From contig JBHGBJ010000006.1 in assembly GCA_041947025.1 (NCBI GenBank), positions 5,995-69,994 of the forward strand: DNA of 64,000 bases, read 5' to 3'. A program made the position numbers and the translations under genes. A model generated the notes under the pieces. It had not been told where the DNA came from. It did no database searches and worked only from the letters and a program-made list of their open reading frames with translations. The DNA comes from Thermodesulfobacteriota bacterium (GTDB taxonomy: Bacteria; Desulfobacterota; BSN033; UBA1163). Of the stretch, positions 14,752 through 61,846 are shown one piece after another; position 1 is the first letter of the stretch, and each line of letters begins with the position of its first letter.

Positions 14752-14790
14752 CCCTGTCCCTGCCGCCTGCTTCCGGCAGGCAGGGAAGTT
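14752..14790. repeat. REP-like GC-rich palindromic element (CCTGCC..CCGGCAGGCAGG) between dctP and dctQ
   Basis: tccctgtccctgccgcctgcttccggcaggcagggaag; member of a family recurring at 30967, 34399, 34463, 42638, 55366, 61815. Confidence 0.6.
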
Positions 14791-14850
14791 GGTGCTTCTG
14801 GGCTTGAACTGATCCCACCTCCGGAGATGGGACCAGTTCATGCACTATTC

Positions 14851-15861
14851 CTACTTCTTCCCAATTTCATCAAAGATCTTTTTCTTTACATCGGCAATCT
14901 TCAAAACCTCATAAGCCTTTTCTCCAGCCTTTTTGAAAGCGGCTATATTAACATTGTCTGTCACGATCATCCCTCTCTTCGTTGTCAGTTCCGCTTTCAC
15001 TTCTTTCTCAAGCTTATCCATGATGAGCTTTGAAGTCTCGATGCCGGCTTTTTCGCATTCCTCAACAAGAATGTTTTGATAGTTTGCGGGCAATGCGTTA
15101 AACCATTTCGAGCTGATGACTTCATAATTAACAAGCATGATATGATGTGTCTCGCTCACATACTTAAGAACCTCATAGAAGCGTCCGGCAGGAATGTTGT
15201 TATAGACCAGCTCAACTCCATCCATCGCTTTTTGCTGAAGAGCCGGGTACATATCTCCAAAAGCCATCGCCACAGGGGTTGCGCCGAGAGCGCGTACAGA
15301 CTCCTGCCAAATGGGCGCAGGAGGCGTCCTGATTCGAAGACCCTTTAAGTCTTCGGGGGTCCGGATTGGCTTATTCGTAAAGAAATGTCTGTAGCCCTGG
15401 ACCCAGGTGAAAGATAGAACTTTTATACCATGTTTATTAGCCAGCTCGTCATGAAAACGTATGATTGTTGGCGCCTTTTTGACTTTTGCCACTTCCGCAA
15501 GATTCTCAACAAAATAAGGGCCATTCAGGCAATCTACCCCTTTGACATACATTCCCATGCGGGCCGAGTCGGTATTCTGTCCAATATTTGCGCCCGCCTT
15601 TATCTGCTCGAGGATGTCTTCTTCAACGCCAAGCTGAGCACTGTGAAAGACCTCAATTTTAAGACCGCCCTTTGTCTTCTGATCAACCGCTTTTGCCCAA
15701 TTCAGAAATCCCTGGTGATAAGGTTCTTTTTGACCCAACACGTGGTTAAATTTTAAAACAAACTTCTGCTGTCCAGAGGCCGGTGCTCCATAAGAGGCTA
15801 TTGCTAGGAGTAAAACCGTGAAAACAGCTACTGTAAGGGAAAATTTCTTTGAACGTTTCAT
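14851..15861 (-). CDS. dctP: TRAP transporter substrate-binding protein
   Basis: Start at ATG 15861 (RBS AAGGAGGG, 6-nt spacer); signal peptide MKRSKKFSLTVAVFTVLLLAIASYGAPASG; DctP-family body. Confidence 0.8.
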   Translation of the reverse strand: MKRSKKFSLTVAVFTVLLLAIASYGAPASGQQKFVLKFNHVLGQKEPYHQGFLNWAKAVDQKTKGGLKIEVFHSAQLGVEEDILEQIKAGANIGQNTDSARMGMYVKGVDCLNGPYFVENLAEVAKVKKAPTIIRFHDELANKHGIKVLSFTWVQGYRHFFTNKPIRTPEDLKGLRIRTPPAPIWQESVRALGATPVAMAFGDMYPALQQKAMDGVELVYNNIPAGRFYEVLKYVSETHHIMLVNYEVISSKWFNALPANYQNILVEECEKAGIETSKLIMDKLEKEVKAELTTKRGMIVTDNVNIAAFKKAGEKAYEVLKIADVKKKIFDEIGKK

Positions 15862-15948
15862 ACAGACCCTCCTTTTCATCCTTGTTTCGTATTTCTCTAA
15901 CCTTGAAATTCAACTCGGAACTCATCACCTTCAGTTCTTAACTCCCCA

Positions 15949-15983
15949 CTCCGAACTCCGAACTCCGAACTCCGAACTCCGAA
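15949..15983. repeat. heptanucleotide microsatellite (CTCCGAA)x5, ~90-120 nt upstream of dctP start
   Basis: ctccgaactccgaactccgaactccgaactccgaa; 2-copy version at 9114-9127 upstream of tctC, inverted copies at 48088-48132. Confidence 0.8.
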
Positions 15984-16324
15984 CTGAAAATCACCTCCTT
16001 TCTTAAGGATTTTCCTGATCATTTAAAACAAAATGATTCGCTTCTTTGTTCTTTTGAGCCTAAAACAGGCATTCCGTATTACGAAACGCCGTTTCCTATT
16101 TTATTAAATCCAAAAAAAAAGTCAAGTGTTTTATTTTAGGGCTCTGAAGAACTATTCATTGCTCTGTGATTAGAGATTTTCGAAAAAGATCGGAAATCTC
16201 TCCGTTGGTTTTCTTATTGACGGCGAACCGTTCATCTGCTATGAAGAAAAGTATCGCCTTGCTTCGATCAAAAGATAGATGGCTTTCATCGAGCAGAATG
16301 AAAATAGGCTAATGGAAGGAGGCA

Positions 16325-17176
16325 ATGATGAAAAAGAAATTAAACCGATTTGATCTTCAGAATATGAAGGAATCCGGCAAGAAAGCGGTTTGGATTACCG
16401 CTTATGATTACTGGATGGCGCAGTTTGCGGAGAAGGCGGACATGGATATGATTCTGGTGGGCGATTCTCTGGGGATGTGCGTCTATGGCTATGAAGGCAC
16501 CGTTCCCGTGACCATGGACCAGTGCATTGGTCATTCTGAGGCGGTTCGCCGGGGTGCTCCCAATACGTTTATCATTGGGGATATGCCCTTTCTTTCCTAT
16601 CAGGTCAACATTGACGATGCGGTTCGAAATGCGGGCCGATTCTTTAAAGAGGCTAGAGTGGATGCGATTAAGCTCGAAGGAGGTCAGAGGGTCTGTCCGC
16701 AGATCAAGGCGATTTCGGATGGGGGCATGTTGGTGATGGGGCACATCGGCCTGACGCCACAGAGCTCAGGCCAGCTTGGCGGTTTCAAGGCCCAGGGAAG
16801 AACCGCCGAGTCAGCGATCGGATTGATTGAGGATGCGAGGGCGGTCCAGAGTGCCGGGGCTTTTTCCCTCCTTGTAGAAGCTGTGCCCCCAGAGATCTGT
16901 AAAATCATCCGAGATGATTTAACCATCCCGGTTTACGGTATCGGTGCCGGAGTGGATGTGGATGGCCAAGTCATGATTTGCAGTGACATTCTCGGCATTT
17001 TCCAGGCCTTTACTCCAAAATTTGTAAAAAAGTATGCGGATTTGGGAGATCAAACATTGAAAGCCATGGAGGCTTATGTCGGCGATGTGAGGGCGGGGAG
17101 GTTTCCAGGGGCTCAGCACACTTATAACATGATCGAAGGCGAACTTCCGAAACTGAGGGCTGCCCTGAAGAAGTAA
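16325..17176 (+). CDS. panB: 3-methyl-2-oxobutanoate hydroxymethyltransferase (ketopantoate hydroxymethyltransferase)
   Basis: 283 aa; AVWITAYDY...ILVGDSLGM...GAPN...IKLEGG...GHIGLTPQS...IGAG conserved PanB blocks; RBS GGAAGGAGG (second ATG 16328 may be the true start). Confidence 0.85.
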   Translation: MMKKKLNRFDLQNMKESGKKAVWITAYDYWMAQFAEKADMDMILVGDSLGMCVYGYEGTVPVTMDQCIGHSEAVRRGAPNTFIIGDMPFLSYQVNIDDAVRNAGRFFKEARVDAIKLEGGQRVCPQIKAISDGGMLVMGHIGLTPQSSGQLGGFKAQGRTAESAIGLIEDARAVQSAGAFSLLVEAVPPEICKIIRDDLTIPVYGIGAGVDVDGQVMICSDILGIFQAFTPKFVKKYADLGDQTLKAMEAYVGDVRAGRFPGAQHTYNMIEGELPKLRAALKK

Positions 17177-17248
17177 GCTCCGTTAGAAAAGAGAATCTTT
17201 GACATCGCTCTCAATCAATGAGGTTTCTATCGGGGCAAAGGAAAAACG

Positions 17249-18514
17249 ATGAGTCTGAGAGGTCGTCTGAGAATCGAGCCATCGGTCATTGAGGAGATCA
17301 ACCGCTTTCTCCTCGACCCGGAGAATCCTGTCGTTAACGCACTCTTGCAAGTTGTCGCCAAGTATGGAACTCCGGAGGAGATCAATTCCCGGGCCCGGAA
17401 GGCACGGGATCTTACCAACCTGTTGGGAAGACTGCGAGAAATCGGGTCTCCTTATGTAAGAGATTTAGAGTGGATCGTGGCTGAGAGAGAGAGGAGATCT
17501 TTTGTCTCAATTTCTGATTTCCGAAAGAAGATTCTTGGAAAACGCATGGACGCGATCCCCTTCGATGAAGGGAAGGCCGTGACTCTGGAAATCAGCGCTC
17601 TTCAATACTTTCCATGGTTGATCGCGGAGGCCCATCATGCGATCGAGCACCAAGAAGTCATGCCGGCAAGATATATCCGAGTCCGTAAGATGAAGGAGCA
17701 AGAAAGAGATCAAGGAGATATTCTGGCTGTGGCCGCAGCCATGGAGATCATCGGTGCAACTTACGTGGAAACCTTGGATACCAAAGGAACAGACGGATCG
17801 AACGTCCATCTGGGCGGCCCGGAAACCATCACAGGATATTTCGGAGGAATCGGACAGCCGAATGAGCATGCCCTTCAATGGGTCGATGAATATCTTTACT
17901 ATTATACGCAATACGGAATACGGCAGGTTCTCAACATCAACCCGGGGACGGTGTTTCTGGGTTACCTTCTCCACAGATTAGGTATCGATATGGAGTTCAA
18001 GATTTCTGTCTTTATGGGAAATGATAATCCTTATTCGGTTTTATGGACATTGATTGCAGCCAAGCTCTTTTCGCGGGAAGATGGCTCCTCACCGCTGGTT
18101 GGGTTCAATCTGAGCAATTCCGTCGATGGCCAGACTCTGACTTTATCCGGCGAAATTCGCCGAAAGCTCGGATTCGAAGAGGAAGTCCGGATCGAACATC
18201 ACATCACCGAGACATGGAAAAGTATCGTGCGACAGCCCTATAACCGGCGAGGGGATCTATTCGAAGTGGCCTCCCGAATGCCCAACATCTCAGCCAAGCA
18301 CGAAGGGGGCGATCCAGAAATTGAGCAGACAAGGGAACATCCATCGGACATCTTGGACTATTTTCGGGATAAGGAGGAGATCTTATCTTCCGGAGATATG
18401 CCACACCTGGAAAAAAATTATATGGACAAACACGATGCGGTCAACCGAACCGCCAGGGCATTGACAGAAAGAGGTGTGTCTTTTGTAGCTGCCTGGAATT
18501 TACATAGCCGATAG
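17249..18514 (+). CDS. hypothetical protein (421 aa, no family recognised)
   Basis: Long uninterrupted ORF, soluble, no Cys motifs, no Rossmann/P-loop; sits between panB and a BKACE gene. Confidence 0.5.
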   Translation: MSLRGRLRIEPSVIEEINRFLLDPENPVVNALLQVVAKYGTPEEINSRARKARDLTNLLGRLREIGSPYVRDLEWIVAERERRSFVSISDFRKKILGKRMDAIPFDEGKAVTLEISALQYFPWLIAEAHHAIEHQEVMPARYIRVRKMKEQERDQGDILAVAAAMEIIGATYVETLDTKGTDGSNVHLGGPETITGYFGGIGQPNEHALQWVDEYLYYYTQYGIRQVLNINPGTVFLGYLLHRLGIDMEFKISVFMGNDNPYSVLWTLIAAKLFSREDGSSPLVGFNLSNSVDGQTLTLSGEIRRKLGFEEEVRIEHHITETWKSIVRQPYNRRGDLFEVASRMPNISAKHEGGDPEIEQTREHPSDILDYFRDKEEILSSGDMPHLEKNYMDKHDAVNRTARALTERGVSFVAAWNLHSR

Positions 18515-18541
18515 AATACGGAAACGGATCGTATGCATCCT

Positions 18542-19378
18542 TCATCGAAGAGTTTTTAGGCCGAGGATCTGCCGTGCCTCTCGGGCGGTAGCCACCTGCC
18601 TTCCAAGACGCTCGGTCAAATCCGTAGCCATCTCTACCATCTGAGCATTGCTCGAAGCCAGGACTCCTTTTTTCAGATAGATATTATCCTCGAAACCGAC
18701 CCGAATATTTCCGCCCAAGAGAATACCCATGGTGATCATTGGAAGCTGATCCTTTCCGACACCAAGAACGCTCCACTCTGCGTTCGAGGGGAGCTTACTC
18801 TTCATAAAAAGGAGGTTTTCAGGTGAGGCTTCTATGCCCCATTTGACCCCCATACAGAGCTGGAAATAAGGGGGAGAGTCGATCAGTCCTCTTTGTATGA
18901 GATCCCTGGCTTCATAAATATGGCCGACATCAAAGGCCTCGATTTCCGGTTTGACGCCGTTTTCCTGCATGCATTTTGCCGCGACCTCGGCCCAGTCCGG
19001 AGGGTTGACAAAGGCACGATCCTGAAAGTTGATAGAGCCCAAGTCAAAAGAACAGAGATCGGGTTTGAGCGATATGGGCTGGAGACGCTCAGCGTTGGCT
19101 TCTGGTCCATCGAGAAACAGGCCGCTGGTCGTCAAATTGACGATCATATCGCATTGCTGCCGAATGCCATCCAATATTTCTTTGAACCATTGGATCTTAA
19201 AATCGGGTTGACCGGTTTTCGGATCCCTCAGGTGGATATGGGCGATTGCTGCCCCTGCCCGGTGGGAATCCAGAGCGGCCTGAATGATCTCTTTTGTCGA
19301 GTACGGAACAGCAGGGTTCATCTCCTTGGTTGGCCGAGACCCTGTTAAAGCAGCGGTGATGATAATCTTTTCTCCCAT
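18542..19378 (-). CDS. beta-keto acid cleavage enzyme (BKACE / DUF849; 3-keto-5-aminohexanoate cleavage enzyme family)
   Basis: 278 aa; [52 protein letters not shown]... is the hallmark BKACE N-terminus (TIM-barrel Zn enzyme). Confidence 0.75.
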
Positions 19379-19480
19379 AAAACCTCCCTCAGCTCTCGCT
19401 TGGGTAAGCTACAGCAAAGTGGTATGGACATCAGAGAGACATGCCTGCCAGCAGGATAGACTGGGCAGAGGCAATTGCAT

Positions 19481-19987
19481 TTATCGAAACTCAACGAACT
19501 CCTCAAGGGGTTTGCGGTAGTTCTGCGGCGACTCTGCAGGATACCCGACCGGGAGAAGAGAGACCACCCGGATCGCCTCAGGAAGTTGAAAGAGTTTTTG
19601 AATAGCTGTCTCAGCCCCTGTCCCCCAAACACCGATCCAGCCCACCCCCAAACCGAGGCTATGTCCAGCCAGGGCCATATTCTGTGTGGCAGCAGCTCCC
19701 GCCTCAATCCCATGGAGGGGATCGATCCTGCGATCCACGCAGACCAGGATGACTGTGGGTGCTTCGTTGATTCCCAGATGAAGGACATTCTCCCTGGACG
19801 CCTTATCCAGTTTATTTTTTAAATCGGGATCTTTGATGACGATAAATTTCCAAGGTTGAAGATTACTGAATGAAGGGGCCCACCTTCCTGCATCGAGAAT
19901 CATCTGGAGCCTCTCCTGACCGATCGGGTCAGGTTTAAATTTCCGGATCGTCCTTCGATTCTTAATCGCGTTTAACACTTCATTCAT
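19481..19987 (-). CDS. nitroreductase-family protein
   Basis: 168 aa; ...AIKNRRTIRKFKPDPI...APSFSNLQPWKFIVIKD... classic nitroreductase N-terminus. Confidence 0.7.
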   Translation of the reverse strand: MNEVLNAIKNRRTIRKFKPDPIGQERLQMILDAGRWAPSFSNLQPWKFIVIKDPDLKNKLDKASRENVLHLGINEAPTVILVCVDRRIDPLHGIEAGAAATQNMALAGHSLGLGVGWIGVWGTGAETAIQKLFQLPEAIRVVSLLPVGYPAESPQNYRKPLEEFVEFR

Positions 19988-30966: not shown

Positions 30967-31009
30967 TCCCCGCCTGTCCCACCTGCCTACCGGCAGGCGG
31001 GACAGGGGC
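30967..31009. repeat. REP-like palindromic element
   Basis: ccccgcctgtcccacctgcctaccggcaggcgggacagggg: cctgcc/ggcagg stem around TACC loop with flanking secondary arms. Confidence 0.6.
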
Positions 31010-31045: not shown

Positions 31046-32026
31046 TCACTGACTCTTGAAGAGGTTCCTGAATTGATCAAGGAGGACATACTGTTTTTGA
31101 GTCTCGCCCAAATATTTCTTGCCATCAAGAGGGGTGATGTCGATCTTCCTGTTCTTGGCCCACTCCAGAAATGCAGGGCTTCTGGCCGTCTTTAGCATCG
31201 CATCCTCCAGAATTTTGACCCGGTCGGGTGGAGTGTTAGGAGGTGCAACGAATCCCCTGACCGCAGCCATAACCGTCATGTTGTGGCCCAACTTACTGGG
31301 GAAAGGTACATCGGGAAAGACCGAATCCGGTGCATCCGAATAGACCAGAAGAGGACGAATTTTTCCCGCAGCCACCAGCGGCTGGGCGCTGTTGGTTGAG
31401 ATGATGGCAAAATCGATATGTTTTCCTGCAAGGCTGGAGAGAACCTCCCCTGAACCATCAAACGGAACCCAATTGGCCTTCATCCCCAATTTATCAACAG
31501 TGGCCAGGCCGCAGATATGGGAGGTGCTTCCTGGGGAGGGGACACCTCCGGACAGGGTCTTTTCCCTGGCAACCTTGAGGAATTCATCAAAGGTCTTCCA
31601 GTTGTCCGGATGGACCAAGAGAACCATATTGGTGATACAAAGGCCAAAGACATGGGTGAAGCCACTCGTTTTAAATTCAGTCTTAAAAAGGTACTCGTTC
31701 ATGATCGACTGGGGAATGCCATGATATAACAACGTATAGCCGTTCGGATCGGCTTTCCAAACCTTGGTCAATCCCATCTTCCCCCCGGCCCCCGGGAGGT
31801 TCTCAAGGATGATGTCCACCCCGAGGGTCTTACTGAGGTAGGGTGTAAACCCTCGTGGTTCCATATCGATTGATCCTCCTGCAGATTGTGGAACGATCAC
31901 TCTGACTGCCTTGGCGGGAAATTTTTCGGCAGCTTCCGTGCTTGCCATCCAAATACAAAGACAGAATGCCAGTGCCAGAATGATTGCACAACCTTTCCTC
32001 CCTCGTAACCCTTTTAGATTTTCCAT
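31046..32026 (-). CDS. Bug/TctC-family substrate-binding protein (orphan, no tctAB adjacent)
   Basis: 326 aa, signal peptide, ...VRVIVPQSAGGSIDMEPRGF...PGAGGKMG... TctC pattern. Confidence 0.75.
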   Translation of the reverse strand: MENLKGLRGRKGCAIILALAFCLCIWMASTEAAEKFPAKAVRVIVPQSAGGSIDMEPRGFTPYLSKTLGVDIILENLPGAGGKMGLTKVWKADPNGYTLLYHGIPQSIMNEYLFKTEFKTSGFTHVFGLCITNMVLLVHPDNWKTFDEFLKVAREKTLSGGVPSPGSTSHICGLATVDKLGMKANWVPFDGSGEVLSSLAGKHIDFAIISTNSAQPLVAAGKIRPLLVYSDAPDSVFPDVPFPSKLGHNMTVMAAVRGFVAPPNTPPDRVKILEDAMLKTARSPAFLEWAKNRKIDITPLDGKKYLGETQKQYVLLDQFRNLFKSQ

Positions 32027-32357: not shown

Positions 32358-34442
<2,085 letters not shown>

Positions 34443-34462: not shown

Positions 34463-34505
34463 AGGCAGGGAACGCATATATGCCTGCCTACCGGCGGGCA
34501 CGGGT
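34463..34505. repeat. REP-like palindromic element
   Basis: caggcagggaacgcatatatgcctgcctaccggcgggcacggg; also shares GGAACGCATA word with 36200-36227 palindrome. Confidence 0.55.
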
Positions 34506-34673
34506 TTCCCTACCGACCATTTGATCTCATTTTAGACATAGGAGAAGCTTTTGTCAAACAATGCAACCCGTATGGGAATGGGCACTAAATATGGTGTAAA
34601 TAAAGTCCAATCGGGGCAGATATTGGGCCACGGGGATGAAATCAAAAAAATTGAAATAAGTATAAAATTTTAC

Positions 34674-34702
34674 TTGACAAAATAAGGTTTTCGGTATAAA
34701 TA
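34674..34702 (+). promoter_or_regulatory. sigma70-type promoter of the dcw cluster (TTGACA-17 nt-TAAATA)
   Basis: ttgacaAAATAAGGTTTTCGGTAtaaata: consensus -35, 17-nt spacer, near-consensus -10, ~65 nt upstream of mraZ ATG. Confidence 0.55.
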
Positions 34703-34711
34703 ATCCGGAAA

Positions 34712-34736
34712 GTGGTAAAAAGTGGGAAAAGGTGGT
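34712..34736 (+). promoter_or_regulatory. putative MraZ operator: three GTGGN direct repeats at 10-bp periodicity
   Basis: aGTGGTaaaaaGTGGGaaaagGTGGTa directly downstream of the -10; E. coli/Bacillus MraZ binds three TGGGN repeats with 5-nt spacers at the mra promoter. Confidence 0.5.
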
Positions 34737-35208: not shown

Positions 35209-35264
35209 TACGACGACGAACGATAAACAATGAACGATGAACATTGGACGATAGACGATGAGCA

Positions 35265-36199: not shown

Positions 36200-36227
36200 C
36201 GTAGGGAACGCATAGATGCGTTCCCTA
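36200..36227. repeat. perfect 13-bp-stem palindrome (gtagggaacgcat AG atgcgttccctac) between rsmH and ftsL
   Basis: Exact reverse-complement arms separated by 2 nt, 9 nt after rsmH stop; no U-tract. Confidence 0.7.
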
Positions 36228-36246
36228 CTGTTAGAGGGCAAAGACC

Positions 36247-42637: not shown

Positions 42638-42658
42638 TCCCCTGCCTACCGGCAGGCA
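42638..42658. repeat. REP-like palindromic element (core copy) in mraY-murD spacer
   Basis: cccctgcctaccggcaggcac. Confidence 0.6.
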
Positions 42659-42719
42659 CCAAATTCAAAACAAATTCCAAATTCAAATTTCTGAATATCT
42701 AAACTCTTGAATTTGGTGG

Positions 42720-44162
42720 TTGGAATGTATTCGGTGCTCGGAGTTTGGAGCTTGGGATTTTCGCTACGGAGTTGAATTGAAATCGTCAACGAGTGTGTCA
42801 AAAGGGTTGGATCTCAGTGGCAGGAGAGTTCTGGTGGTGGGTTTGGCTCGGACCGGATTGGCAACGGTGAAGTTTCTCAGAACCAAGGGTTCGATCGTCA
42901 GCACGACAGAGATGATGCCAAAGGAACAGATGAAGGCTGCCGTCCAAGAATTGGAGGGAATCAATATTCCGATGGAATGGGGTGGCCATCGAGAAGAGAC
43001 TTTTCTCAGTCCCGATCTCATCGTGGTAAGCCCCGGGGTCGATTTGAACATTGGGCCGATCCAAAAGGCCCTGGGAAAAGGGATTCGCGTCATCAGCGAG
43101 ATCGAACTGGCTTACCACTTCATCCACATTCCCATCATTGCCGTCACAGGAACGAACGGAAAGACCACCACCACCTTATTGATTGGCGAAATGGTGAAGG
43201 AAGCAGGAACGAAAGTGGGGGTGGGAGGAAACGTCGGTGACCCGCTGATCCTGTTTGCAGAGGGGGGGGATCGATGGGAGGTTCTGGTGGTTGAGATCTC
43301 CAGCTTTCAATTGGAGGCGATCGAAGACTTTCGGCCCCGATTTTCAATTCTTCTCAACATCACCGAGGATCACTTGGATCGCTACCGGCGTTACGAAGAT
43401 TATATTGAGGCAAAGGTCCGGATCTTCATGAACCAGGATTCGGGTGATGTGGCGGTCCTCAATCAAGACGATCCCATGGTGAGGGCCAATCAAGCAAAGG
43501 TGAAGGCGAAGAAGCTCTTCTTCAGCTTGAAGGAGAGACTGGAGCAGGGTGCTTTTCTATCTGACCAAAGCATCGTCCTCAGGCTCGGGAAGAAAGAGGA
43601 GGATTACTCCTTAGCGAAGGCTTCCTTAAAAGGGATCCACAATGTGGAGAATATGATGGCGGCGATTACCGCTGCCAGAGCCTTCGGTTGTCCGAAGAAG
43701 CCGATCGAGACCGTTCTTTCCCGGTTTAAGGGGCTTGAGCATCGTGTTGAATTTGTGCGGGAGATCGAAGGCATCCGTTTCTACAATGACTCAAAGGGAA
43801 CCAATGTGGGCTCCGTGGTGAAATCTCTCCAGAGTTTTTCAGACCCCATCGTCTTGATAGCCGGAGGAAAGGATAAGATGGGGGATCTTTCCCCCCTCAA
43901 AGAATTGATCCGGGATCGGGTCAAGCAACTGATCCTCATCGGAGAGGCTAAGGAAAGAATGAATCGGGAGCTTGGAAGATACACGGATACGACCATTGCC
44001 AAGACCCTGGAAGAGGCCGTGACACTTGCTTATCAATCGGCGAAGAAGGGAGAAGTGGTTCTTCTTTCACCAGCCTGTTCGAGTTTCGATATGTTCAAAG
44101 ATTACAAGGAGAGAGGAAAGGTCTTTAAGGAAGCCGTATTTAGATTAGGAAAGAATGAATGA
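42720..44162 (+). CDS. murD: UDP-N-acetylmuramoylalanine--D-glutamate ligase
   Basis: GRRVLVVGLARTGLA, GTNGKTTTT P-loop. First ~25 codons of the ORF-track frame (MECIRCSEFGAW...) are probably not translated; GTG 42795 or TTG 42810 likely true start. Confidence 0.85.
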   Translation: MECIRCSEFGAWDFRYGVELKSSTSVSKGLDLSGRRVLVVGLARTGLATVKFLRTKGSIVSTTEMMPKEQMKAAVQELEGINIPMEWGGHREETFLSPDLIVVSPGVDLNIGPIQKALGKGIRVISEIELAYHFIHIPIIAVTGTNGKTTTTLLIGEMVKEAGTKVGVGGNVGDPLILFAEGGDRWEVLVVEISSFQLEAIEDFRPRFSILLNITEDHLDRYRRYEDYIEAKVRIFMNQDSGDVAVLNQDDPMVRANQAKVKAKKLFFSLKERLEQGAFLSDQSIVLRLGKKEEDYSLAKASLKGIHNVENMMAAITAARAFGCPKKPIETVLSRFKGLEHRVEFVREIEGIRFYNDSKGTNVGSVVKSLQSFSDPIVLIAGGKDKMGDLSPLKELIRDRVKQLILIGEAKERMNRELGRYTDTTIAKTLEEAVTLAYQSAKKGEVVLLSPACSSFDMFKDYKERGKVFKEAVFRLGKNE

Positions 44163-44403
44163 CAAATGTCAAAGCTCAAAGGAAGCTCGAAATCTAAATG
44201 TCAAAAAATTTGACATTTAGTCATTTGTCATGAATTTGACCGGAACGTGCCCCGCAAGCCCCGCCTTGTAGGCGGGGTAAAGGGGCACTATATGAACGAT
44301 GATACCTTTCCGGGAAGCCCCGGCCTGTGGCCGGGGAGCTTCACCTTTGAACTTTGGAATTCTGAGAGATTTTCTAATTTTCAGGTATCGGCGATGGGGC
44401 AGG

Positions 44404-46610: not shown

Positions 46611-46709
46611 TCTATTTAGTCTTTTTCGTCTATCTCGTTAACTTAACAAACCAGATAGGCCAGAAGAACCAGACAGACTAGACAAACCAGATAGACCAGA
46701 AAGACGAGA

Positions 46710-48080
46710 ATGTATCGAAAAGGAAAGATTCAGCATATTCATTTTGTGGGCATCGGCGGGATCGGCATGAGTGGCATTGCCGAGGTTCTCCTCAACCTGG
46801 GCTACCACATCACGGGCTCGGATATCAAGGAAACCGAAGTGACCCGAAGGCTGCAAACGCTCGGATGTGAGATCTTCTACGGCCATCGGAAGGAGAATGT
46901 GAAGGAGGTCGATGTGGTCGTGGTCTCCTCTGCGATTCGTCACGAGAATCCGGAGGTGAAAACGGCTGAGGAGAGGCTTATTCCGGTGATCCCGCGGGCG
47001 GAGATGCTTGCGGAGCTGATGCGGATGAAAGTCGGGGTCGCGATTGCGGGCACCCATGGAAAGACGACGACCACTTCCCTTATCGCCACCGTTCTGGGAG
47101 CCGGCGGGCTCGACCCGACCGTGGTGATCGGAGGGAGACTGAACAGCATCGGAAGTAATGCCAGGCTTGGCCAGGGAGATTTCTTGGTGGCTGAGGCTGA
47201 CGAAAGCGACGGCTCTTTCGTCAAACTGATGCCCACCATTGCTGTCGTCACGAATATCGACCCCGAACACCTCGATTACTATCCAGGGATTGAGGAGATC
47301 AAAGAGACCTTTCTCAGTTTCTTAAATAAGATTCCCTTTTTTGGCCTGGCCGTACTCTGCCTGGATCATCCCAATATCCAGAGCCTCATCCCGAGGCTGA
47401 AGAAACGATTCACCACTTATGGATTGACATCCCAGGCGGATTTCCAGGCCAAGGAGATCGAGTTCGAAGGTCTTTCCACGAGCTTTGACGTCCTTCATAA
47501 GAATCGGGAGATCGGCAGATTGAAGCTTCGGATGCCCGGACTCCATAACGTCTATAATTCCTTGGCCACCGTCGCCACAGCCTTTGAGCTGGATATCCCC
47601 TTCCGGGTGATTCAGGAAACGCTCCGTGATTTCAGCGGGATTCAGAGAAGGTTCCAGATCAAAGGAGAGAAGAAGGAGATCCTCATCGTCGATGACTATG
47701 GCCATCATCCGATAGAAATCATGGCAACACTGAAGGCGGCGCGGAGCGGCTGGAAGAGAAGGGTTGTCGTGGTTTTCCAGCCGCACCGTTACTCCCGGAC
47801 CAAGGCCCTTTTCCAAGATTTTCTAACGGCCTTTTACGATGCCGACGTTCTCATCCTCACCGATATCTATCCGGCAGGAGAGGATCGGATCGAAGGAGTA
47901 GAGGCCCGCTCGCTCTTTGAAGGCCTTCGAGAATACGGCCATAAGAATGTGACCTATCTGCCGAATAAGAAGGAGATTGTGGATCATCTCCTTCGAATCC
48001 TTGCCCCGGGAGATCTGGTGATCACCTTGGGAGCCGGTGACATCTGGCAGGTGGCTGATGAGCTGGTGCAACGTTTATGA
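46710..48080 (+). CDS. murC: UDP-N-acetylmuramate--L-alanine ligase
   Basis: 456 aa; [29 protein letters not shown]-loop. Confidence 0.9.
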
Positions 48081-48087
48081 ATTCGGA

Positions 48088-48211
48088 GTTCGGAATGCGG
48101 TATCCCAAATTCGGAATTCGGAGTTCGGAATGCGGAGTGAAAGATTTATATTCCGCATTCTGCGTTCCGCAATCCGCATTTGATAAATTCCGCACTCTGC
48201 ATTCCGCAATA
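48088..48211. repeat. 124-bp imperfect inverted repeat built from TTCGGAAT(G)CGG / CCGCATTCCGAA words (murC-murB spacer)
   Basis: attcggagttcggaatgcggtatcccaaattcggaattcggagttcggaatgcggagtg ... tattccgcattctgcgttccgcaatccgcatttgataaattccgcactctgcattccgcaat. Confidence 0.7.
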
Positions 48212-48213
48212 GA

Positions 48214-52231: not shown

Positions 52232-52338
52232 AAAACAAACGTTCGACGTTAGGATCGTTTAGATGGTTTTGATGGTTTAACAGGATATACGATCTAAACA
52301 AACCAAACGAACTAAACTTTTTCAAGGAGGAGGGTCAT

Positions 52339-53502: not shown

Positions 53503-53645
53503 AAGAGCAAGTAATCAGTGGAGTGTGGTCAGCGATCAGCAAGAAACAGTAAGATTATCTACGAGGAGTGAAATTTGTTATAATGGATCGTAGATCTCTT
53601 TTGACAACCGGGAACTGATTACTGACAACTGCTTACTGATAACTT

Positions 53646-55365: not shown

Positions 55366-55449
55366 AGGCTGAAAGCTCCCGCCTACGCTGAAGCTGCGGC
55401 GGGCAGGCAAAGCTGAAAGCTCCTGCCTGTCCGGTAGGCAGGGGGGATG
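55366..55449. repeat. tandem pair of REP-like palindromic elements
   Basis: ggctgaaagctcccgcctacgctgaagctgcggcgggcaggcaaa + gctgaaagctcctgcctgtccggtaggcaggggggatga. Confidence 0.6.
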
Positions 55450-56325: not shown

Positions 56326-57366
56326 ATGGATAGCATTACCCATACGCTGACGGGTGTGGTTGTTGCGAAGGCCATAAAGGATGAGAAGGTCGGGAATTGG
56401 GGGACGGTTGCTGGTTTGACGATGGGATTCTTTCCCGATACCGATTTTGTCCTTGGCCTTTTCAACCGTCAATTCTATCTCCAGTATCACCGGGATTTCA
56501 CGCATTCCTTGTTATTAATCCCTTTCTATGCACTTTTTTTCAGTTGGCTCTTTGTTAAAATTTCAAGGCGGCCCTTTTTCTGGAGTTTTTATAAGATCTG
56601 TCTCTCCGTTCTGGTCAGTCACGTCATCCTCGACCTTCTCACCTCTTATGGGACGATGATTCTTTCCCCTCTTTCCGACCACCGGTTTTCATGGGATCTT
56701 GTTTTTATCGTCGATCTGATCTTCTCCGGAATCATCGTTTTCCCATTGTTGATTAGTCTTTTCCTAAGAAGAAAAGCTCCCTGGATCTGCCGTGGCTCCT
56801 TGATAGGAATTTCGCTTTATATCTTTTTCACCTGGATACTGCACCATCAGGCCATTCATCTCGCAAAGACCTTCGCACACAATTTGGACCAAGAAGTCAT
56901 TCAAGTGGCTTCCTTGCCTCAACCCATATCCCCTTTTCGATGGGCCAACTATGTCGAGACCAAGGACAAGATCTACCAAGGGGTTGTCGATCTCAAAGGG
57001 GAATACTCTCAACTTCTCGGAACGCTGACATTGCCTCTCTCCAAACTTCCTTTTTTCAAGAGATATGAAAGGTATAGACGATTGGATGATCTCCTTCAGC
57101 CTCCTGAAAAACTTGTGTATCGGTCCTGGCAAAGATCCGACGGGTCTCCCTGGGTGAAAAAGGCACTGGCTACGAATGGCGTGAAATTTTATTACTGGTT
57201 TGCCCGCTTTCCAGTGGTGATGTCAGTGGAATCCGGAGATGGAAGGCACCGGGTGGAGTTTACAGACGTCCGTTTTTTCTTTCCGAACGTTCGCGTCCCA
57301 TTCGCATACTATGTGGAATTTGATGACTCGGGAAATATTCGCTCAGAAGGGTTTGCGGAGAATTAA
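56326..57366 (+). CDS. membrane-bound metal-dependent hydrolase (DUF457/YdjM-like) with C-terminal extension
   Basis: MDSITHTLTGVVVAKAI... N-terminal His-rich start typical of DUF457, 5-6 TM, ~150-aa soluble C-terminal domain. Confidence 0.5.
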   Translation: MDSITHTLTGVVVAKAIKDEKVGNWGTVAGLTMGFFPDTDFVLGLFNRQFYLQYHRDFTHSLLLIPFYALFFSWLFVKISRRPFFWSFYKICLSVLVSHVILDLLTSYGTMILSPLSDHRFSWDLVFIVDLIFSGIIVFPLLISLFLRRKAPWICRGSLIGISLYIFFTWILHHQAIHLAKTFAHNLDQEVIQVASLPQPISPFRWANYVETKDKIYQGVVDLKGEYSQLLGTLTLPLSKLPFFKRYERYRRLDDLLQPPEKLVYRSWQRSDGSPWVKKALATNGVKFYYWFARFPVVMSVESGDGRHRVEFTDVRFFFPNVRVPFAYYVEFDDSGNIRSEGFAEN

Positions 57367-57379
57367 ATAAAGTATTAGA

Positions 57380-58435
57380 TTAGCTGGTTGGTTTGATATT
57401 CTTTATCTTCCAGCCGCCAGGTTCTTTATTTAAAGTGACATCCAGAACCGTTTCACTCTGCTGGGTTGGGCCCCCTCCCTTTGAAGAGTACACAACAACC
57501 CATGCAACCTTGGCCCCAGCGGTATCGGCCGAAATCGAGTGCTCCCTCAGGGTGTAGGAAAGGTTGATATAGGTGAAATTCTCCCAATTCCTGAGCGTCT
57601 CTTTTTTCTTCCCTTCCCGGTCTTTAAAACCCGCCGAATAACACGACATGAATAGATCGATATTTTTTCTTAAATTTGCCTGACGAATGTTTTCTAAGAG
57701 GTTCTTTATGTTTTCGATCTCTTTATCATCGGATGCGGGTGTTTTAGGGACCACTGGAGCCGGAGGGGGAGAAGGAGGATGCGTTATCTTTGGTTCAGGA
57801 CGCGCCGCAGGTTCGGTGGGAGCGGCGGGACGAGAGGGGAGAGAACTGACCACTTTCTTAGGAATAGGCTTGCTTGGAGCAGACTTTTTGGGTGTAAAAT
57901 GAGAGTAGGCAGACCAGAGGAGGTACCCTCCGATGATGATCACAACAATAAAACCGATCTTCTGGTAGGTTAAGCTTGGAATCCTTATCTGAATCTTTTC
58001 GGAACGGCGGGGCTCCTTTCTTCTTTCTCCGGAAGATAGATCAGGAGAATCCGGTTCATCGGTTGAGGGTTCAGGGTGGCCCTTCTTCATCTCTTCCAAA
58101 AACTCTGGCTCAGGTTCTTCTCTCTTGACCCGTTTGACAGGTTCAGGCTCCCTCCTTGGAGGTGGCGGAGAAGAGCGCCGCTCAGGGGCGGCTTTAGGTT
58201 TAGGGGGAGGCGCAGTTGGGAATTTTTCCTCGAAGTCGAATAGATTTGATGTTTCGATCTCCACTTTTCCGGCTTTAGGCTCCTCGACAGGAGGAATTTC
58301 CTTATCGGTTTTAGGTTGGGGGAATGCCTCAAGTTCCTCTTTCTCGGAAGAAGTCTTTTCAACCAAAGAAGAACCGCATCGAATGCACTCGGTGCTCTTT
58401 TCGTAGAGTAGTTTACACTTTGGGCAGATTAACAA
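57380..58435 (-). CDS. zinc-ribbon / Pro-rich linker / single-TM / periplasmic NTF2-like (DUF4440-type) domain protein
   Basis: MLICPKCKLLYEKSTECIRCGSSL (4-Cys ribbon), ~140-aa P/E/K-rich linker, TM (IGFIVVIIIGGYLLWSAY), P/A-rich spacer, C-terminal ~110-aa domain (NIKNLLENIRQANLRKNIDLFMSCYSAGFKD...) paralogous to 60089..60847. Confidence 0.5.
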   Translation of the reverse strand: MLICPKCKLLYEKSTECIRCGSSLVEKTSSEKEELEAFPQPKTDKEIPPVEEPKAGKVEIETSNLFDFEEKFPTAPPPKPKAAPERRSSPPPPRREPEPVKRVKREEPEPEFLEEMKKGHPEPSTDEPDSPDLSSGERRKEPRRSEKIQIRIPSLTYQKIGFIVVIIIGGYLLWSAYSHFTPKKSAPSKPIPKKVVSSLPSRPAAPTEPAARPEPKITHPPSPPPAPVVPKTPASDDKEIENIKNLLENIRQANLRKNIDLFMSCYSAGFKDREGKKKETLRNWENFTYINLSYTLREHSISADTAGAKVAWVVVYSSKGGGPTQQSETVLDVTLNKEPGGWKIKNIKPTS

Positions 58436-58455
58436 TTTTTATCCCCCACAACAGA

Positions 58456-59385
58456 TCACATGGGATTTGGTTTTGCCGGAGTACTGGGAGGAGGGGAGTC
58501 ATCAGCCAATGTGGTTGCCTGCTTGCTCACCCATACTTCTTTTCCATCTTGCAGTCGAACGCGCAACCAATCCCCTCTTTCTTCAAGAAGTCCTAAGGAA
58601 GTCCCTTTCTTGATGCTGCCAACATTCCTGTAATTTGTTCCTGGCCCATCACGCAGATTTGCATAAGACCATACGATCTGAATGGAACGAAGAGCAGGCG
58701 TTGTCTTAACAACAGGATTTGCCGGAGGAACTGGAGTTGTTTCAGGTTGATCTGCCGGCAGTTTTGCTGACTCCTTCGGTGGTGTAGGCGGAGAAGACGG
58801 GACAGGAGCAGGTGAAGTTCGGTAGTATTCGGGAGGGGTTTTGGAGACAATCACCTTCACCGATTCTTCAATCACCATTTGTATCGCCTTCTCCAGAGGT
58901 GCGGCCTTTCCCTCCATATTCTGGGAGATAATCTTGCGGCCGGTCTTTATGTCGCTCACGCTCAACAGGAGCGCAATATGGGATGGGCTCTTTAGGAGGA
59001 GTCCTTTTCCCTGCTCGAATTGAGTGATGGTCCCTCCAATTAAGAGATGGGCGCCTTTCATCGATTGTTTTGAACCATTCCGGGACAACTGCATCTGGAT
59101 CGTAAAACGGTTGGTTGCCAGTAAGGCGTTACCTAACATCTCTGCCATGCTCTCTTCGGTCTGGCCACTATTCTTAACATTAGATGACTTATCAATGAAT
59201 TTCGTTATCACAACTTTTACTTTGGGCCCCTTATAGTCCTTCTTCTGGGGAGAGGGTTCCGACGAAGAGACAGTCTTGTCGGTGGGATGAATCACCTCTT
59301 TCACCGCTGCGCAACCGATCAATATAGGCAAGATCATAAGGAATACGATAACTTTAACGAATGAATTCTTTGGTCTGTACGTCAT
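58456..59385 (-). CDS. lipoprotein with CsgG/LpoB-like N-domain and C-terminal bacterial SH3 domain
   Basis: Lipobox (LILPILIGC), KVKVVITKFIDKSSNVKNSGQTEESMAEMLGNALLATNRFTIQ (CsgG/LpoB-like), Pro-rich linker, C-terminal SH3b-like (IQIVWSYANLRDGPGTNYRNVGSIKKGTSLGLLEERGDWLRVRLQDGKEVWV). Confidence 0.5.
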   Translation of the reverse strand: MTYRPKNSFVKVIVFLMILPILIGCAAVKEVIHPTDKTVSSSEPSPQKKDYKGPKVKVVITKFIDKSSNVKNSGQTEESMAEMLGNALLATNRFTIQMQLSRNGSKQSMKGAHLLIGGTITQFEQGKGLLLKSPSHIALLLSVSDIKTGRKIISQNMEGKAAPLEKAIQMVIEESVKVIVSKTPPEYYRTSPAPVPSSPPTPPKESAKLPADQPETTPVPPANPVVKTTPALRSIQIVWSYANLRDGPGTNYRNVGSIKKGTSLGLLEERGDWLRVRLQDGKEVWVSKQATTLADDSPPPSTPAKPNPM

Positions 59386-59630
59386 AGGGTTTCTCTTCTT
59401 TCTTTATCGTGACCAAAGAAAAAGAAGCAAAAGTAGTGCCAAAATTTGACAAACCTTTAATTGTTTGGATTTATTTAGTTTTTAGTGAAATGCAGAATTC
59501 GATGCTGCCTTCCATGTTAGGAAAATGGTCCTTTCCTATGACAATTTGGGTAACCGAAGGAATCTCACTCACATTTCTGTCACTGAGAATTGAGGACGGT
59601 TCTGCTCATTCGAGATCGAAGGATGTCCGC

Positions 59631-60068
59631 TCAGATATTCCATTGAATTCCCTCTCTTGATTCGGGCCTTTTTGCTATTTCTGCCATATGATGGGCAATA
59701 CGCAAAATCACAGTGAACATTTCCAGTAGGAGCCTGCTGTAAAGGAGGGTTAAAAGAAATATGAGCGGGGCAACGAGGACGAGGGTAAGAATCCCTAGGC
59801 CTTTTGAGACATTGAATCCGAGGGCGACGCAGAGAAATGAAAGGAGTCCGGCATAGAGAATCGATAAACCGTAAATGAATTTGATCATTTTTGAAGCCAA
59901 ACCCTTGCTGAATGAGAGATCAAAGAGGTTTTGAAGAAAACCGGCCTTCTTCAATAGCCGCACGGCCAAAGATTTCTTCTTGATTGCGGTCTCTGTCAGA
60001 GATTCACCACACTGGATGCAAAGCTTCTTATCGTCTTCATTTAACGTGCCGCAATTCGTGCAATACAT
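59631..60068 (-). CDS. zinc-ribbon domain fused to small two/three-TM membrane domain
   Basis: MYCTNCGTLNEDDKKLCIQCGESL ribbon then hydrophobic segments (ILYAGLLSFLCVALGF, ILTLVLVAPLIFLLTLLY). Confidence 0.45.
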   Translation of the reverse strand: MYCTNCGTLNEDDKKLCIQCGESLTETAIKKKSLAVRLLKKAGFLQNLFDLSFSKGLASKMIKFIYGLSILYAGLLSFLCVALGFNVSKGLGILTLVLVAPLIFLLTLLYSRLLLEMFTVILRIAHHMAEIAKRPESREGIQWNI

Positions 60069-60088
60069 AAATGTCCTCCTCTAAACGC

Positions 60089-60847
60089 TCAACTTATGGG
60101 TTGGATATCTTTGATCTTCCAGTCCTCTCCTTCTTTCTTCAGTACGACATCCAAAACGGTTCTGTTGTCTTGCGGTTTTCCAGATCCTTTTTGAGAAATC
60201 TTCATCCGCCACTCCACCCTGATATGGGCGGAATCTCCTGATATGGCCTGTTCCTTCAAATCATAGGCAAGGTCGAGGTAATCAAACTTTTTCCAGTTTT
60301 CAAGGGTATCGAGCTTCTTCTTGTCCCTATCCTTAAAATCAAGAGTGTAACAGGACATAAAGAGATCGATGTTCTTCTTGAGATTTGCTTCCCGGATCCT
60401 TTCGAGAAGGGATTGTATCTTTTCAGTTTCTTTGGCTTCAAGCACCGGACCCGGGTTCGGTAAGGAAGGTGCCTCGGACTGGCGGGTTTGATCGTGGTTT
60501 TGCCAAAAGAAGTACCCGCCCACAATCACCAGGAGAATGGCCACGCTTGCCATGGCCCAAGGGAAGAGACGAGTTCTGAGAGGTTTTCTCCCGAATGATC
60601 GAAGAGCGGGTTGGGATGGAGCCTCCCGATCCAATAGGGAGCCACATTTTCTACAGTATCTTCCTACCCCGTAAGACTCTTGGCACCGTGGACAGAATAA
60701 GTTCCCTCCTTTCTTTCCCGATCGGGTTGATTCCGTTATGGGAAGCTCAAAAGTGGACCCCTCTTCACTCAAGAGGAAGCTTCCGCACTTTCTGCAAAAC
60801 TTTTTTCCTTCCTCGTATTCGATATTGCATTTCGGACAGACAAGCAT
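60089..60847 (-). CDS. double zinc-ribbon / single-TM / periplasmic NTF2-like domain protein (paralog of 57380..58435)
   Basis: Two CxxC...CxxCG ribbons (CPKCNIEYEEGKKFCRKCG; CPRCQESYGVGRYCRKCG), TM ([18 protein letters not shown]), C-terminal domain IQSLLERIREANLKKNIDLFMSCYTLDFKD... closely similar to the other paralog. Confidence 0.5.
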   Translation of the reverse strand: MLVCPKCNIEYEEGKKFCRKCGSFLLSEEGSTFELPITESTRSGKKGGNLFCPRCQESYGVGRYCRKCGSLLDREAPSQPALRSFGRKPLRTRLFPWAMASVAILLVIVGGYFFWQNHDQTRQSEAPSLPNPGPVLEAKETEKIQSLLERIREANLKKNIDLFMSCYTLDFKDRDKKKLDTLENWKKFDYLDLAYDLKEQAISGDSAHIRVEWRMKISQKGSGKPQDNRTVLDVVLKKEGEDWKIKDIQPIS

Positions 60848-60867
60848 CTTTTACCCCTTCCAGCCAG

Positions 60868-61644
60868 TCATTTGACTCCTAACTCCTCGCGTACCTTCTG
60901 CAAAATATCGGCCATTGTGGGGCCGGCCTGACCGTAAATCACGATATCCGCGGTGCTATCGTAAGGGGTTGGGTCACGGTTGATGATCACCAATTTAGCT
61001 CCGTTTCGTTTGGCCACCAAAGGCATCGAGGCTGCAGGCTGTACGACCAGAGATGAGCCGATGACGATGAATAGATCGCTTGTGGAGGATCGATGATAGG
61101 CCTCTTCGGTTTCCCTTTCCGGCATGGATTGACCAAAGGAGATGGTGGCAGGTTTTAGAGGTCCATGGCAGTCATCACAATAGGGGGCCCTCTCGCCCTT
61201 GCGCAATCTTTCCTGGATCTGATCGCGATCGTACCTCTTCCCGCAACTCAGGCAGGAAACAGCCATGGCTGTGCCATGAAGCTGGATCACCTTCTCTTCT
61301 GAATTTCCAGCCTTGAAGTGGAGGCCATCGATGTTCTGGGTGATGACGCAATCCAGTTTACCGAGTCTTTCCATCTCCGCAATGGCAAGATGGGCCAAGT
61401 TGGGTTGGGCCTTCTTCATGGGTTCGTACATCTCGGTTGCCATCTGCCAGTATTTCTCACGAGAGGTTTCACTCGCGAGAAAATTCTGGTAGTAGAAGTC
61501 TTCGGGATTATACCGATCCCACACCCCCCCCGGACTCCGGAAATCAGGAATCCCGGATTCCGTGCTGAGGCCTGCCCCTGAGAAGACCACTATTTTTTTT
61601 GAACTGAGTATGAACCGTGCAACGTCTTCGGCCTGCTTTGTCAT
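60868..61644 (-). CDS. cobB: NAD-dependent protein deacylase, Sir2 family
   Basis: GAGLSTESGIPDFR, QNIDGLH, Zn ribbon CLSCG...CDDCHG; 258 aa. Confidence 0.85.
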   Translation of the reverse strand: MTKQAEDVARFILSSKKIVVFSGAGLSTESGIPDFRSPGGVWDRYNPEDFYYQNFLASETSREKYWQMATEMYEPMKKAQPNLAHLAIAEMERLGKLDCVITQNIDGLHFKAGNSEEKVIQLHGTAMAVSCLSCGKRYDRDQIQERLRKGERAPYCDDCHGPLKPATISFGQSMPERETEEAYHRSSTSDLFIVIGSSLVVQPAASMPLVAKRNGAKLVIINRDPTPYDSTADIVIYGQAGPTMADILQKVREELGVK

Positions 61645-61814
61645 GTGACTCTCCTGGCTTAAAGTTTGTCCGGATATCAGGGTATCCGTTGGAGGGATAT
61701 CAGAATATCAGAACGCCAGGCTTAACAACCTCTTATTCTTGGACCTTTCCTGATATCTGATACCTCGTATCCCGCCTGTTGATTTCCTGGTATCCTGATT
61801 CCCTCTTCTGATTT

Positions 61815-61846
61815 CGCCTGCCTGCGCCTGCTCGCCGGCAGGTGCC
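61815..61846. repeat. REP-like palindromic element
   Basis: cgcctgcctgcgcctgctcgccggcaggtgcc. Confidence 0.5.

Follow-up and report, generated by a model that had tools for sequence, protein, structure and literature searches.

The 64,000-nt stretch of contig JBHGBJ010000006.1 from a Thermodesulfobacteriota bacterium analysed here, hereafter the window, carries a family of short, GC-rich palindromes scattered through its spacers. The original prediction had described such palindromes as resembling repetitive extragenic palindromes (REPs) and as sharing a common core. We recovered every locus that it named and counted 8-9 GC-rich hairpins with CCTGCC/GGCAGG arms, which is the copy number seen for the host in 64 kb. 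The 16-mer CCTGCCTACCGGCAGG matched the window 11 times at three or fewer mismatches, against 0.27 matches expected from shuffled sequence (0 of 100 shuffles reached 11), and occurs exactly at 30982 and 42641. The dispersed palindromes are therefore real, and a shared palindromic core exists, but the true unit is a 20-mer rather than a 16-mer. This 20-bp palindrome consists of the tetramers CCTG, CCTG, CCGG, CAGG and CAGG (perfect form, CCTGCCTGCCGGCAGGCAGG); in a common variant, CCTGCCTACCGGCAGGCAGG, an A at position 8 leaves it one base from the perfect palindrome.

The genes around the copies were identified with Pfam as encoding DctP, DctQ and DctM, a TctC solute-binding protein (SBP) and a DUF898 protein around 30982, radical-SAM and hydrolase proteins at 55.4 kb, and SIR2 and radical-SAM proteins at 61.8 kb. 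LigA / MraZ and MraY / MurD were assigned through synteny with relatives. The features are as follows:

14752..14785: copy 1, degenerate, CCCTG-tc-CCTGCCG-cctgcttc-CGGCAGG-CAGGG; dctP-dctQ spacer, 65 nt past the dctP stop and 34 nt ahead of the dctQ start
14802..14843 (minus strand): conserved hairpin, not a family member; inverted repeat directly after the dctP stop
19440..19459: possible decayed remnant, weak, CATGCCTGCCAGCAGGATAG, with 5 mismatches to the perfect 20-mer and 3 to the 16-mer; spacer 19379-19480
30968..31008: copy 2, 20-mer at 30982-31001, CCTGCCTACCGGCAGGCGGG, 1 mismatch, with outer stem CCTGTCCC/GGGACAGG; tctC-family SBP gene on one side and DUF898 gene on the other, spacer folding z = -5.1
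34399..34430: copy 3, 20-mer-like unit at 34401-34420, CCTGCCCGCCGGCAGGCGGG, then GGCAGGCAG; leader 5′ of ligA, 43 nt ahead of its likely start (34358)
34463..34515: copy 4, 20-mer at 34483-34502, CCTGCCTACCGGCGGGCACG, nested in the module GGGAACGCATATATG ... GGTTTCCCTAC
42638..42660: copy 5, 20-mer at 42641-42660, CCTGCCTACCGGCAGGCACC; mraY-murD spacer, beside the low-complexity hairpin 42656-42737
55378..55408: copy 6, degenerate, CCCGCCTA-cgctgaagctgcg-GCGGGCAGGC, with extra internal sequence and preceded by GCTGAAAGCTC
55422..55442: copy 7, CCTGCCTG-t-CCGGTAGGCAGG, the inverted variant form with one extra base, also preceded by GCTGAAAGCTC
61816..61846: copy 8, degenerate, GCCTGCCtGCGcctgctCGCcGGCAGGTG; spacer separating the divergent SIR2 (minus-strand) and radical-SAM (plus-strand) genes

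The family is heterogeneous within the window. Copies at 30982 (1 mismatch) and at 34401, 34483 and 42641 (2 mismatches each) are near the canonical unit when compared with the nearest 20-mer form. Those at 14752-14785, 55378-55408, 55422-55442 and 61816-61846 are looser, being more degenerate or carrying indels, and are tentative members of the 20-mer family. Overall divergence from the 20-bp unit ranges from 1 to 5 mismatches and no copy is perfect; three copies lie within 2 mismatches of the 20-mer, for which the chance expectation is ~2e-4 (arithmetic on 4^20). Some copies are paired (34401/34483 and 55378/55422). With a gene map drawn from open reading frames (ORFs), Pfam and synteny, non-coding DNA makes up 6,062 bases (9.5%) of the window. 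All five hairpins of the form CCTGCC-N(2-12)-GGCAGG (14759, 30982, 34401, 42641 and 55422) lie in this fraction (P ~8e-6), as do all of the other loci named in the original prediction. Copies as frequent within genes as between them, the outcome which that prediction had named as grounds for giving it up, were thus not what we found.

No Rfam family was detected in the window at the gathering threshold. A U-tail or T run follows none of the copies on either strand, nor does any copy appear in lists of terminator-like sequences; with T tails lacking, an intrinsic (Rho-independent) terminator was rejected. A relation of orientation to the replication strand was dropped because the unit is essentially symmetric, the copy at 55422 is inverted and loci with several copies are mixed. 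Origin from an rRNA fragment, suggested by a likeness to the 16S 341F region, was rejected by eye since the two are not alignable. The sole other contig with the same FtsZ (Logan assembly, SRR29307520) is identical to the window and offered no strain-level polymorphism; exact look-ups of the window's MraY and TctC returned no record.

A 20-bp unit found across phyla

A scan for the exact 16-mer in one genome per species returned at least 120 loci. The full 20-mer, as CCTGCCTACCGGCAGGCAGG, was present in 104 of the 128 exact 16-mer matches listed from species-representative genomes, and matches without this extension sit in long ORFs and look like chance matches. When positions 8 and 13 were left free in a scan of viral contigs, the 57 sites listed comprised 42 perfect copies, 14 A8/T13 variants and 1 double variant. 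The identical 20-mer was found in more than 10 phyla. Its hosts include Bacteroidota (among them the isolates Olivibacter oleidegradans, Flavobacteriaceae R38 and Thermobacterium salinum), many Patescibacteria, Ignavibacteria, Omnitrophota, Stahlbacteria, WOR-3, Planctomycetota, Chloroflexota, Nitrospirota, Terriglobia, Bdellovibrionales, and Syntrophaceae or 'delta proteobacterium' metagenome-assembled genomes (MAGs). The flanks of the copies are not conserved. As judged by a crude six-frame test, about three-quarters of the copies fall outside ORFs of at least 100-120 aa; the spacers that hold them are tandem (38), divergent (11) or convergent (6). Immediately 5′ of the unit T is rare, and immediately 3′ of it A is rare. 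The orientation bias raised in the original prediction was not seen, the asymmetric form lying ~21:14 relative to flanking co-directional genes in other genomes (hand count).

In one variant, CCTGCCTGTCGGCAGACAGG, a compensatory double change preserves the 6-bp stem and, because the stem is retained through both changes, formation of the hairpin is under constraint. Extra tandem CCTG/CAGG units occur at some loci (L011, L027, L049, L088), and a further variant, CATGCCTACCGGCAGGCAGG, occurred 11 times among the fetched loci (L002-L255). Other cross-phylum hairpin modules, namely gtcatTGCGAacgaagtgaagCAATC..., gtcatcctgag...cgaaggatc and cgcgggaatgaca, apparently occupy the same spacer niche as the 20-mer (L258/L259 2590-2660; L009, L032, L069, L112, L115, L118).

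Discrete insertion was examined by joining the 11 nt to the left of a copy to the 11 nt on its right and seeking this empty site elsewhere in the locus, with three or fewer mismatches. Near genes for a GIY-YIG nuclease, described below, 28 of 42 copies have an uninterrupted empty site in an intact tRNA gene ~300 nt away, and 12 of these sites are exact over 22 nt. Among the other copies, 36 of 164 have an empty-site paralogue in the same locus, some of them with low-complexity flanks. Filled and empty sites differ by exactly 20 bp, with no bases duplicated or lost at the junctions. Miniature inverted-repeat transposable elements have terminal inverted repeats and a target-site duplication and are typically 50-500 bp long; the unit here is 20 bp long and leaves no duplication. 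A window module at 44243-44290 (gtgccccgcaag-CCCCGCCTTGTAGGCGGGG-taaaggggcac) recurs with the 20-mer inserted in a 'delta proteobacterium' MAG (L034 7560-7640). These alignments show the 20-mer to behave as a cross-phylum, exact, intergenic insertion unit of 20 bp.

The core of module 44243-44290 is of the CCGCC-N-GGCGG type, which is also found with the tRNA cassettes described below. On one 'viral' contig (L159 2239-2330), a predicted 92-nt tRNA-Met(CAT) carries a perfect 20-mer as its long variable arm or loop. We also considered that copies sit on the tips of pre-existing hairpins, which proved to be a minority pattern (5% versus 0.75% in controls); the copy at 2931 of L172 lies on the tip of a longer perfect palindrome, gggtcggcgcg...cgcgccgaccc.

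A small GIY-YIG nuclease at tRNA genes

Clustering of the ORFs around 147 loci returned one recurrent neighbour family and no other, a protein of ~80 aa that consists, according to Pfam, of the GIY-YIG catalytic domain only. Among solved structures, those of UPF0213 proteins (1zg2, 1ywl) are closest to it, and SLX1 comes next. The family comprises at least 7,798 clusters, annotated solely as 'GIY-YIG nuclease family protein' or 'putative endonuclease'. At loci fetched with the palindrome, seven of seven GIY-YIG ORFs lie ~20-120 nt from the 20-mer and adjoin a tRNA gene. In the reverse direction, the 20-mer (three or fewer mismatches) was present in 34 of 80 metagenome loci fetched through the protein pattern alone, a proportion that overstates the rate across UPF0213 since the 80 scored best against a profile derived from proteins encoded next to the palindrome. 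In those 34 loci the 20-mer starts 32-73 nt before the nuclease ORF and/or 8-127 nt after it.

The cassette has a regular order, in which an intact tRNA gene is followed by the nuclease ORF and then by a partial duplicate of the same tRNA that holds the palindrome in its D loop, at the junction of T stem and loop, or in its anticodon arm (for example, L204 1440-1800; L239 700-1100; L190 580-1000). The stop codon of the mini-gene often lies within the first bases of the tRNA (L176-L255), and some loci have two filled tRNA duplicates plus the intact gene. Loci without the 20-mer mostly carry other short GC palindromes, of the TCCGCC-N-GGCGGA and GCGCC-N-GGCGC types. The type of palindrome tracks the similarity of the nuclease, with 61 of 80 nearest neighbours in agreement, a value matched in 1 of 2000 permutations. 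Comparison of these loci shows a strong physical association of the 20-mer with UPF0213 nuclease/tRNA cassettes.

The dctP-dctQ, ligA and dcw spacers

The dctP-dctQ spacer contains two hairpins, at 14802-14843 and, as the CCTGCC palindrome, at 14752-14785. The first has orthologues in L257 and L258/L259, both relatives, with a T-A pair compensated as C-G. The palindrome is missing from the closest relative, L257, where a clean gap of ~38 nt lies between conserved flanks; in L258/L259 and L256 the same slot holds unrelated modules. On this comparison, the dctP-dctQ copy is a lineage-specific insertion. The original prediction had likened it to the malE-malF REP of E. coli, which Newbury et al. 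in 1987 reportedly described as an mRNA 3′ stabiliser. As in that system, a hairpin separates the gene for the binding protein of a transporter from the genes for its membrane components within the operon. Unlike that system, the hairpin kept among relatives is the neighbouring, unrelated one, and the palindrome is a lineage-specific extra. The analogy, if valid, belongs to 14802-14843, which is the better candidate for a malE-malF-type 3′ hairpin on the SBP message and is probably functional. Enrichment after SBP genes, which the original prediction had asked to be counted, was not significant: a copy follows two of the four SBP genes in the window, dctP and tctC (31046-32026).

LigA almost certainly starts at 34358, giving a protein of 666 aa as in relatives. 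This start would place both copies at 34.4 kb in the ligA 5′ leader and not, as first supposed, beside the promoter of the division and cell wall (dcw) cluster at mraZ. A strong sigma-70-like promoter site for ligA, TTGACA-17-TAAAAT, lies on the minus strand at 34557-34529; the motif is kept in relatives, and its distance from the ligA start is ~160 nt in the window versus ~10-40 nt in relatives. The window's leader is ~140 nt longer than theirs, an excess made up of the two palindrome modules. The mraY-murD spacer is completely different among seven genomes with 86-94% identical MraY, six relatives having unrelated sequence there. MraY relatives have the record names 'Syntrophaceae bacterium' and 'Thermodesulfobacteriota bacterium', and the host is accordingly taken to be an uncultured bacterium of Syntrophaceae-like affiliation. 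In both the ligA leader and the mraY-murD spacer the window is unlike every relative compared, which supports insertion specific to it, and the comparisons show its copies to be lineage-specific and decayed.

The module around copy 4 resembles an uninterrupted palindrome at 36201-36228 (compared by eye, with one indel needed). The latter is perfect, with 13-bp arms (GTAGGGAACGCAT-ag-ATGCGTTCCCTAC), and lies between rsmH and ftsL; its disrupted relative at 34469-34515 has the 20-mer inside. A strong sigma-70-like mraZ promoter at ~34680-34720 on the plus strand, identified by eye, is conserved in relatives, and an insertion sequence fragment (HTH_38 / rve_3) occupies L172 1922-2844 in the ligA-mraZ region of a relative.

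Most dcw spacers fold far better than shuffled sequence in every genome (z = -3.5 to -6.7). Intercistronic spacers, notably in the dcw operon, contain long imperfect hairpins built from stuttering words of 6-8 nt (aaattcaaa, cggaattcggagttcgg, gatttcagattt), as at 42656-42737, 44163-44240, 46611-46709, 48079-48213, 52247-52309, 53503-53645 and 62949-63044, and further at 3058-3142, 3794-3873 and 35209-35264. Relatives with ~90% identical proteins have equally structured yet unrelated sequence in those spacers. At 5846-5896 the window has a near-perfect 22-bp hairpin (cccctcacctttcccctctcccc-act-ggggagagggaagggtgagggg) in a spacer of -45.8 kcal/mol. Similar CCCTCTCC/GGAGAGGG modules flank the 20-mer in other phyla (L063, L102, L109, L117), and modules of this type also occur in L256 and L171 spacers.

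Origin of the palindromes and known systems

We think it reasonably probable that the palindromes of the window are copies, now in decay, of a tiny selfish insertion element of 20 bp that is common to many phyla. Such an element would enter non-coding DNA as an exact block without target-site duplication. Its spread would be driven in trans by the nuclease, or by some other enzyme specific for sequence or structure, that recognises the palindrome in hairpin or cruciform form, in parallel with REPs and the REP-associated tyrosine transposase (RAYT). Horizontal movement of a tRNA-targeting cassette would give identity across phyla, and copies would persist only where insertion is harmless, in intercistronic spacers, leaders and divergent regions. 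Excision and re-ligation of the self-complementary 20-mer is a possible, speculative route. Because none of the window copies is perfect and a nearby nuclease gene is lacking, this lineage may have an inactive family. After insertion, a copy would be transcribed and fold into a stable GC hairpin of 6-8 bp. Slower 3′ exonucleases or a changed ligA leader could follow incidentally, as side effects and not as the reason for the element. Message stabilisation and leader folding are thus plausible secondary consequences at the RNA level.

We suggest tentatively that the spread depends on a structure- or sequence-specific nuclease, for which the GIY-YIG protein is the obvious candidate. More doubtful is the specific proposal that the 20-mer is a non-autonomous partner of the ~80-aa GIY-YIG (UPF0213/SLX1-like) cassettes that home into tRNA genes, with the nuclease excising or seeding the exact 20-bp block. 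The arrangement would then be a REPIN/RAYT-like system on a different nuclease fold, and would cross phyla since its tRNA landing pad is universal.

Several observations weigh against an insertion element, or against its link to the nuclease. For the four canonical copies no ungapped empty-site paralogue was found inside the window, and the window copies are degenerate, their insertion boundaries blurred through decay. Neither the 64-kb window (hmmsearch) nor the relatives' loci L170-L175 contain a GIY-YIG gene, and Pfam found no RAYT or other transposase gene among the window ORFs. About ten 20-mer copies lie near tRNAs without a nuclease gene, the choice of the 80 nuclease loci inflates the reverse test, and the co-variation of nuclease and palindrome may reflect only host phylogeny. 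The palindrome may also favour tRNA-like or repeated DNA independently, the pseudo-tRNA halves serving as permissive neutral targets. Finally, the double change in CCTGCCTGTCGGCAGACAGG reveals selection on hairpin structure, equally expected of a functional RNA or DNA hairpin, and some selection for 'a hairpin here' is possible, as the spacers are hairpin-rich in every relative.

The last points lead to the alternative that the palindromes are locally selected RNA hairpins which protect the upstream message or mark processing sites, setting dctP above dctQM and segmenting the dcw transcript. All copies are probably transcribed, two follow SBP genes, and the folding of their spacers is much stronger than that of shuffles (z = -4 to -6.6). 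In addition, relatives keep strong, unrelated hairpins in the same dcw spacers, which suggests that 'some hairpin' is favoured, and the compensatory variant preserves the stem. We nevertheless regard this alternative as improbable. The conserved hairpin between dctP and dctQ is 14802-14843, the palindrome being absent from the closest relative; two of the four SBP genes lack a copy; and copies show no orientation bias and occur also in divergent promoter regions and a 5′ leader. Local selection, moreover, leaves unexplained both the identity of the 20-mer across phyla and its precise insertion into tRNA pseudo-halves and repeats.

It is very unlikely that the units are immobile and arise in place, through CCTG/CAGG slippage and hairpin-templated correction that converge on a stable hairpin. 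The unit is indeed built from CCTG/CAGG tetramers, of which some loci have extra tandem units, and neighbouring spacers are rich in low-complexity stutter hairpins that differ between close relatives. Such an origin is hard to square with exact 20-bp filled and empty pairs in unrelated, non-repetitive flanks such as tRNA D loops, with the dominance of just two sequence forms across phyla, or with the specific linkage to one nuclease family.

A classical REP/REPIN family, with a RAYT (Y1 HUH) transposase gene at another place in the genome to mobilise it, has a slimmer chance still. A REP is a short (20-40 bp), extragenic, imperfect palindrome with an unpaired terminal GTAG (or CGTC) tag (PMC3733652). 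The window units are of that size and lie in non-coding DNA; like REPs, they are GC-rich, palindromic and partly paired (PMC3733652), and the variant form contains GTAG (CCGGTAGG). This GTAG is internal, however, in the loop (CC-GGTA-GG) and not in a terminal unpaired tag, and the perfect form has neither GTAG nor CGTC. No RAYT gene flanked by repeats was found among the window ORFs or the recurrent neighbours of the 147 loci, the gene beside the unit being a GIY-YIG nuclease and not a Y1 transposase. REPIN-RAYT systems are described as mostly vertical in inheritance and lineage-specific (10.1101/2022.05.22.493013), whereas the identical 20-mer is spread across phyla. The label 'REP-like' in the original prediction is apt for short, GC-rich, extragenic, dispersed palindromes; these elements work like REPs, yet the terminal tag, the RAYT gene and the lineage-specific sequence set them apart.

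Least likely of all is a DNA-level binding site that serves a conserved host protein, either a palindromic operator or a nucleoid, gyrase or IHF (integration host factor)-type site. Dimeric DNA-binding proteins typically use sites with the geometry of a perfect 20-bp dyad, and the strand symmetry of the unit fits the lack of orientation bias. Against this, the nuclease is the only recurrent neighbouring gene, copies are found within operons, downstream of stop codons and in fragments of pseudo-tRNAs, and their presence or absence in the same spacer between close relatives is at odds with a conserved regulatory site.

The insertion element that we favour has partial counterparts among known systems. 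REP/REPIN-RAYT systems share short, GC-rich, dispersed extragenic palindromes that are often paired (PMC3733652; PMC3116915; 10.1101/2022.05.22.493013). They likewise have one copy of a nuclease or transposase gene with these palindromes on its flanks and are proposed to be non-autonomous DNA replicated in trans. Unlike in those systems, the partner here is a domain-only GIY-YIG (UPF0213) nuclease at tRNA genes, beside partial tRNA duplications, and the unit is a single exact 20-mer, without duplication and identical across phyla.

Free-standing GIY-YIG homing endonucleases, of which T4 SegB in a tRNA gene cluster is an example, have been described (PMC2988022; PMC13096335). As in Seg, a small GIY-YIG nuclease gene lies between or beside tRNA genes; Seg is proposed to spread via break repair. 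Seg proteins are phage-encoded and have DNA-binding domains, whereas the proteins here are of ~80 aa, have the catalytic domain only, are chromosomal in many phyla and accompany a fixed palindrome. We know of no dispersed palindrome family for Seg genes.

In the organelle genomes of fungi and algae, mobile clusters of GC-rich palindromes multiply in spacers, nest in one another, occasionally enter genes and are regarded as selfish, with no known enzyme encoded by them (PMC4478555; PMC7218506; PMC2670323). The present palindromes resemble them in being very short, GC-rich and nested while multiplying in spacers. Those clusters are organellar and lineage-specific, whereas the bacterial unit is cross-phylum and nuclease-linked. 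Yeast GC clusters show target-site features.

Nearer to the present host, Geobacter genomes (also formerly Deltaproteobacteria) have many families of short palindromic or heptanucleotide multicopy repeats between and within genes (PMC2700814). Their published consensus differs (e.g., GRCGTAGCGCTGCTACGCC), and neither cross-phylum spread nor a nuclease link is reported for them (PMC2700814). A literature search, incomplete in coverage, found no paper with the 20-mer sequence or with a link of GIY-YIG proteins to dispersed palindromes. The findings point to selfish DNA of a very small and apparently undescribed kind, and away from regulatory hairpins that evolved locally.

These results caution that an intercistronic GC hairpin is not always regulatory, the conserved and probably functional hairpin after dctP being a different one. 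In practice, units of this kind can interrupt assemblies, give rise to false ORFs and change how stable leaders or operon segments are. If the insertion reading is right, the spacers of many phyla are being seeded by one 20-bp palindrome moving as an exact block, a minimal form of selfish DNA. It would account for recurrent 'junk' hairpins annotated as spurious small ORFs, and it would provide a testable function for the large, uncharacterised UPF0213 family and for its placement beside duplicated tRNA halves. Should the nuclease prove to be its partner, the 20-mer would be the smallest mobile DNA unit known in bacteria.

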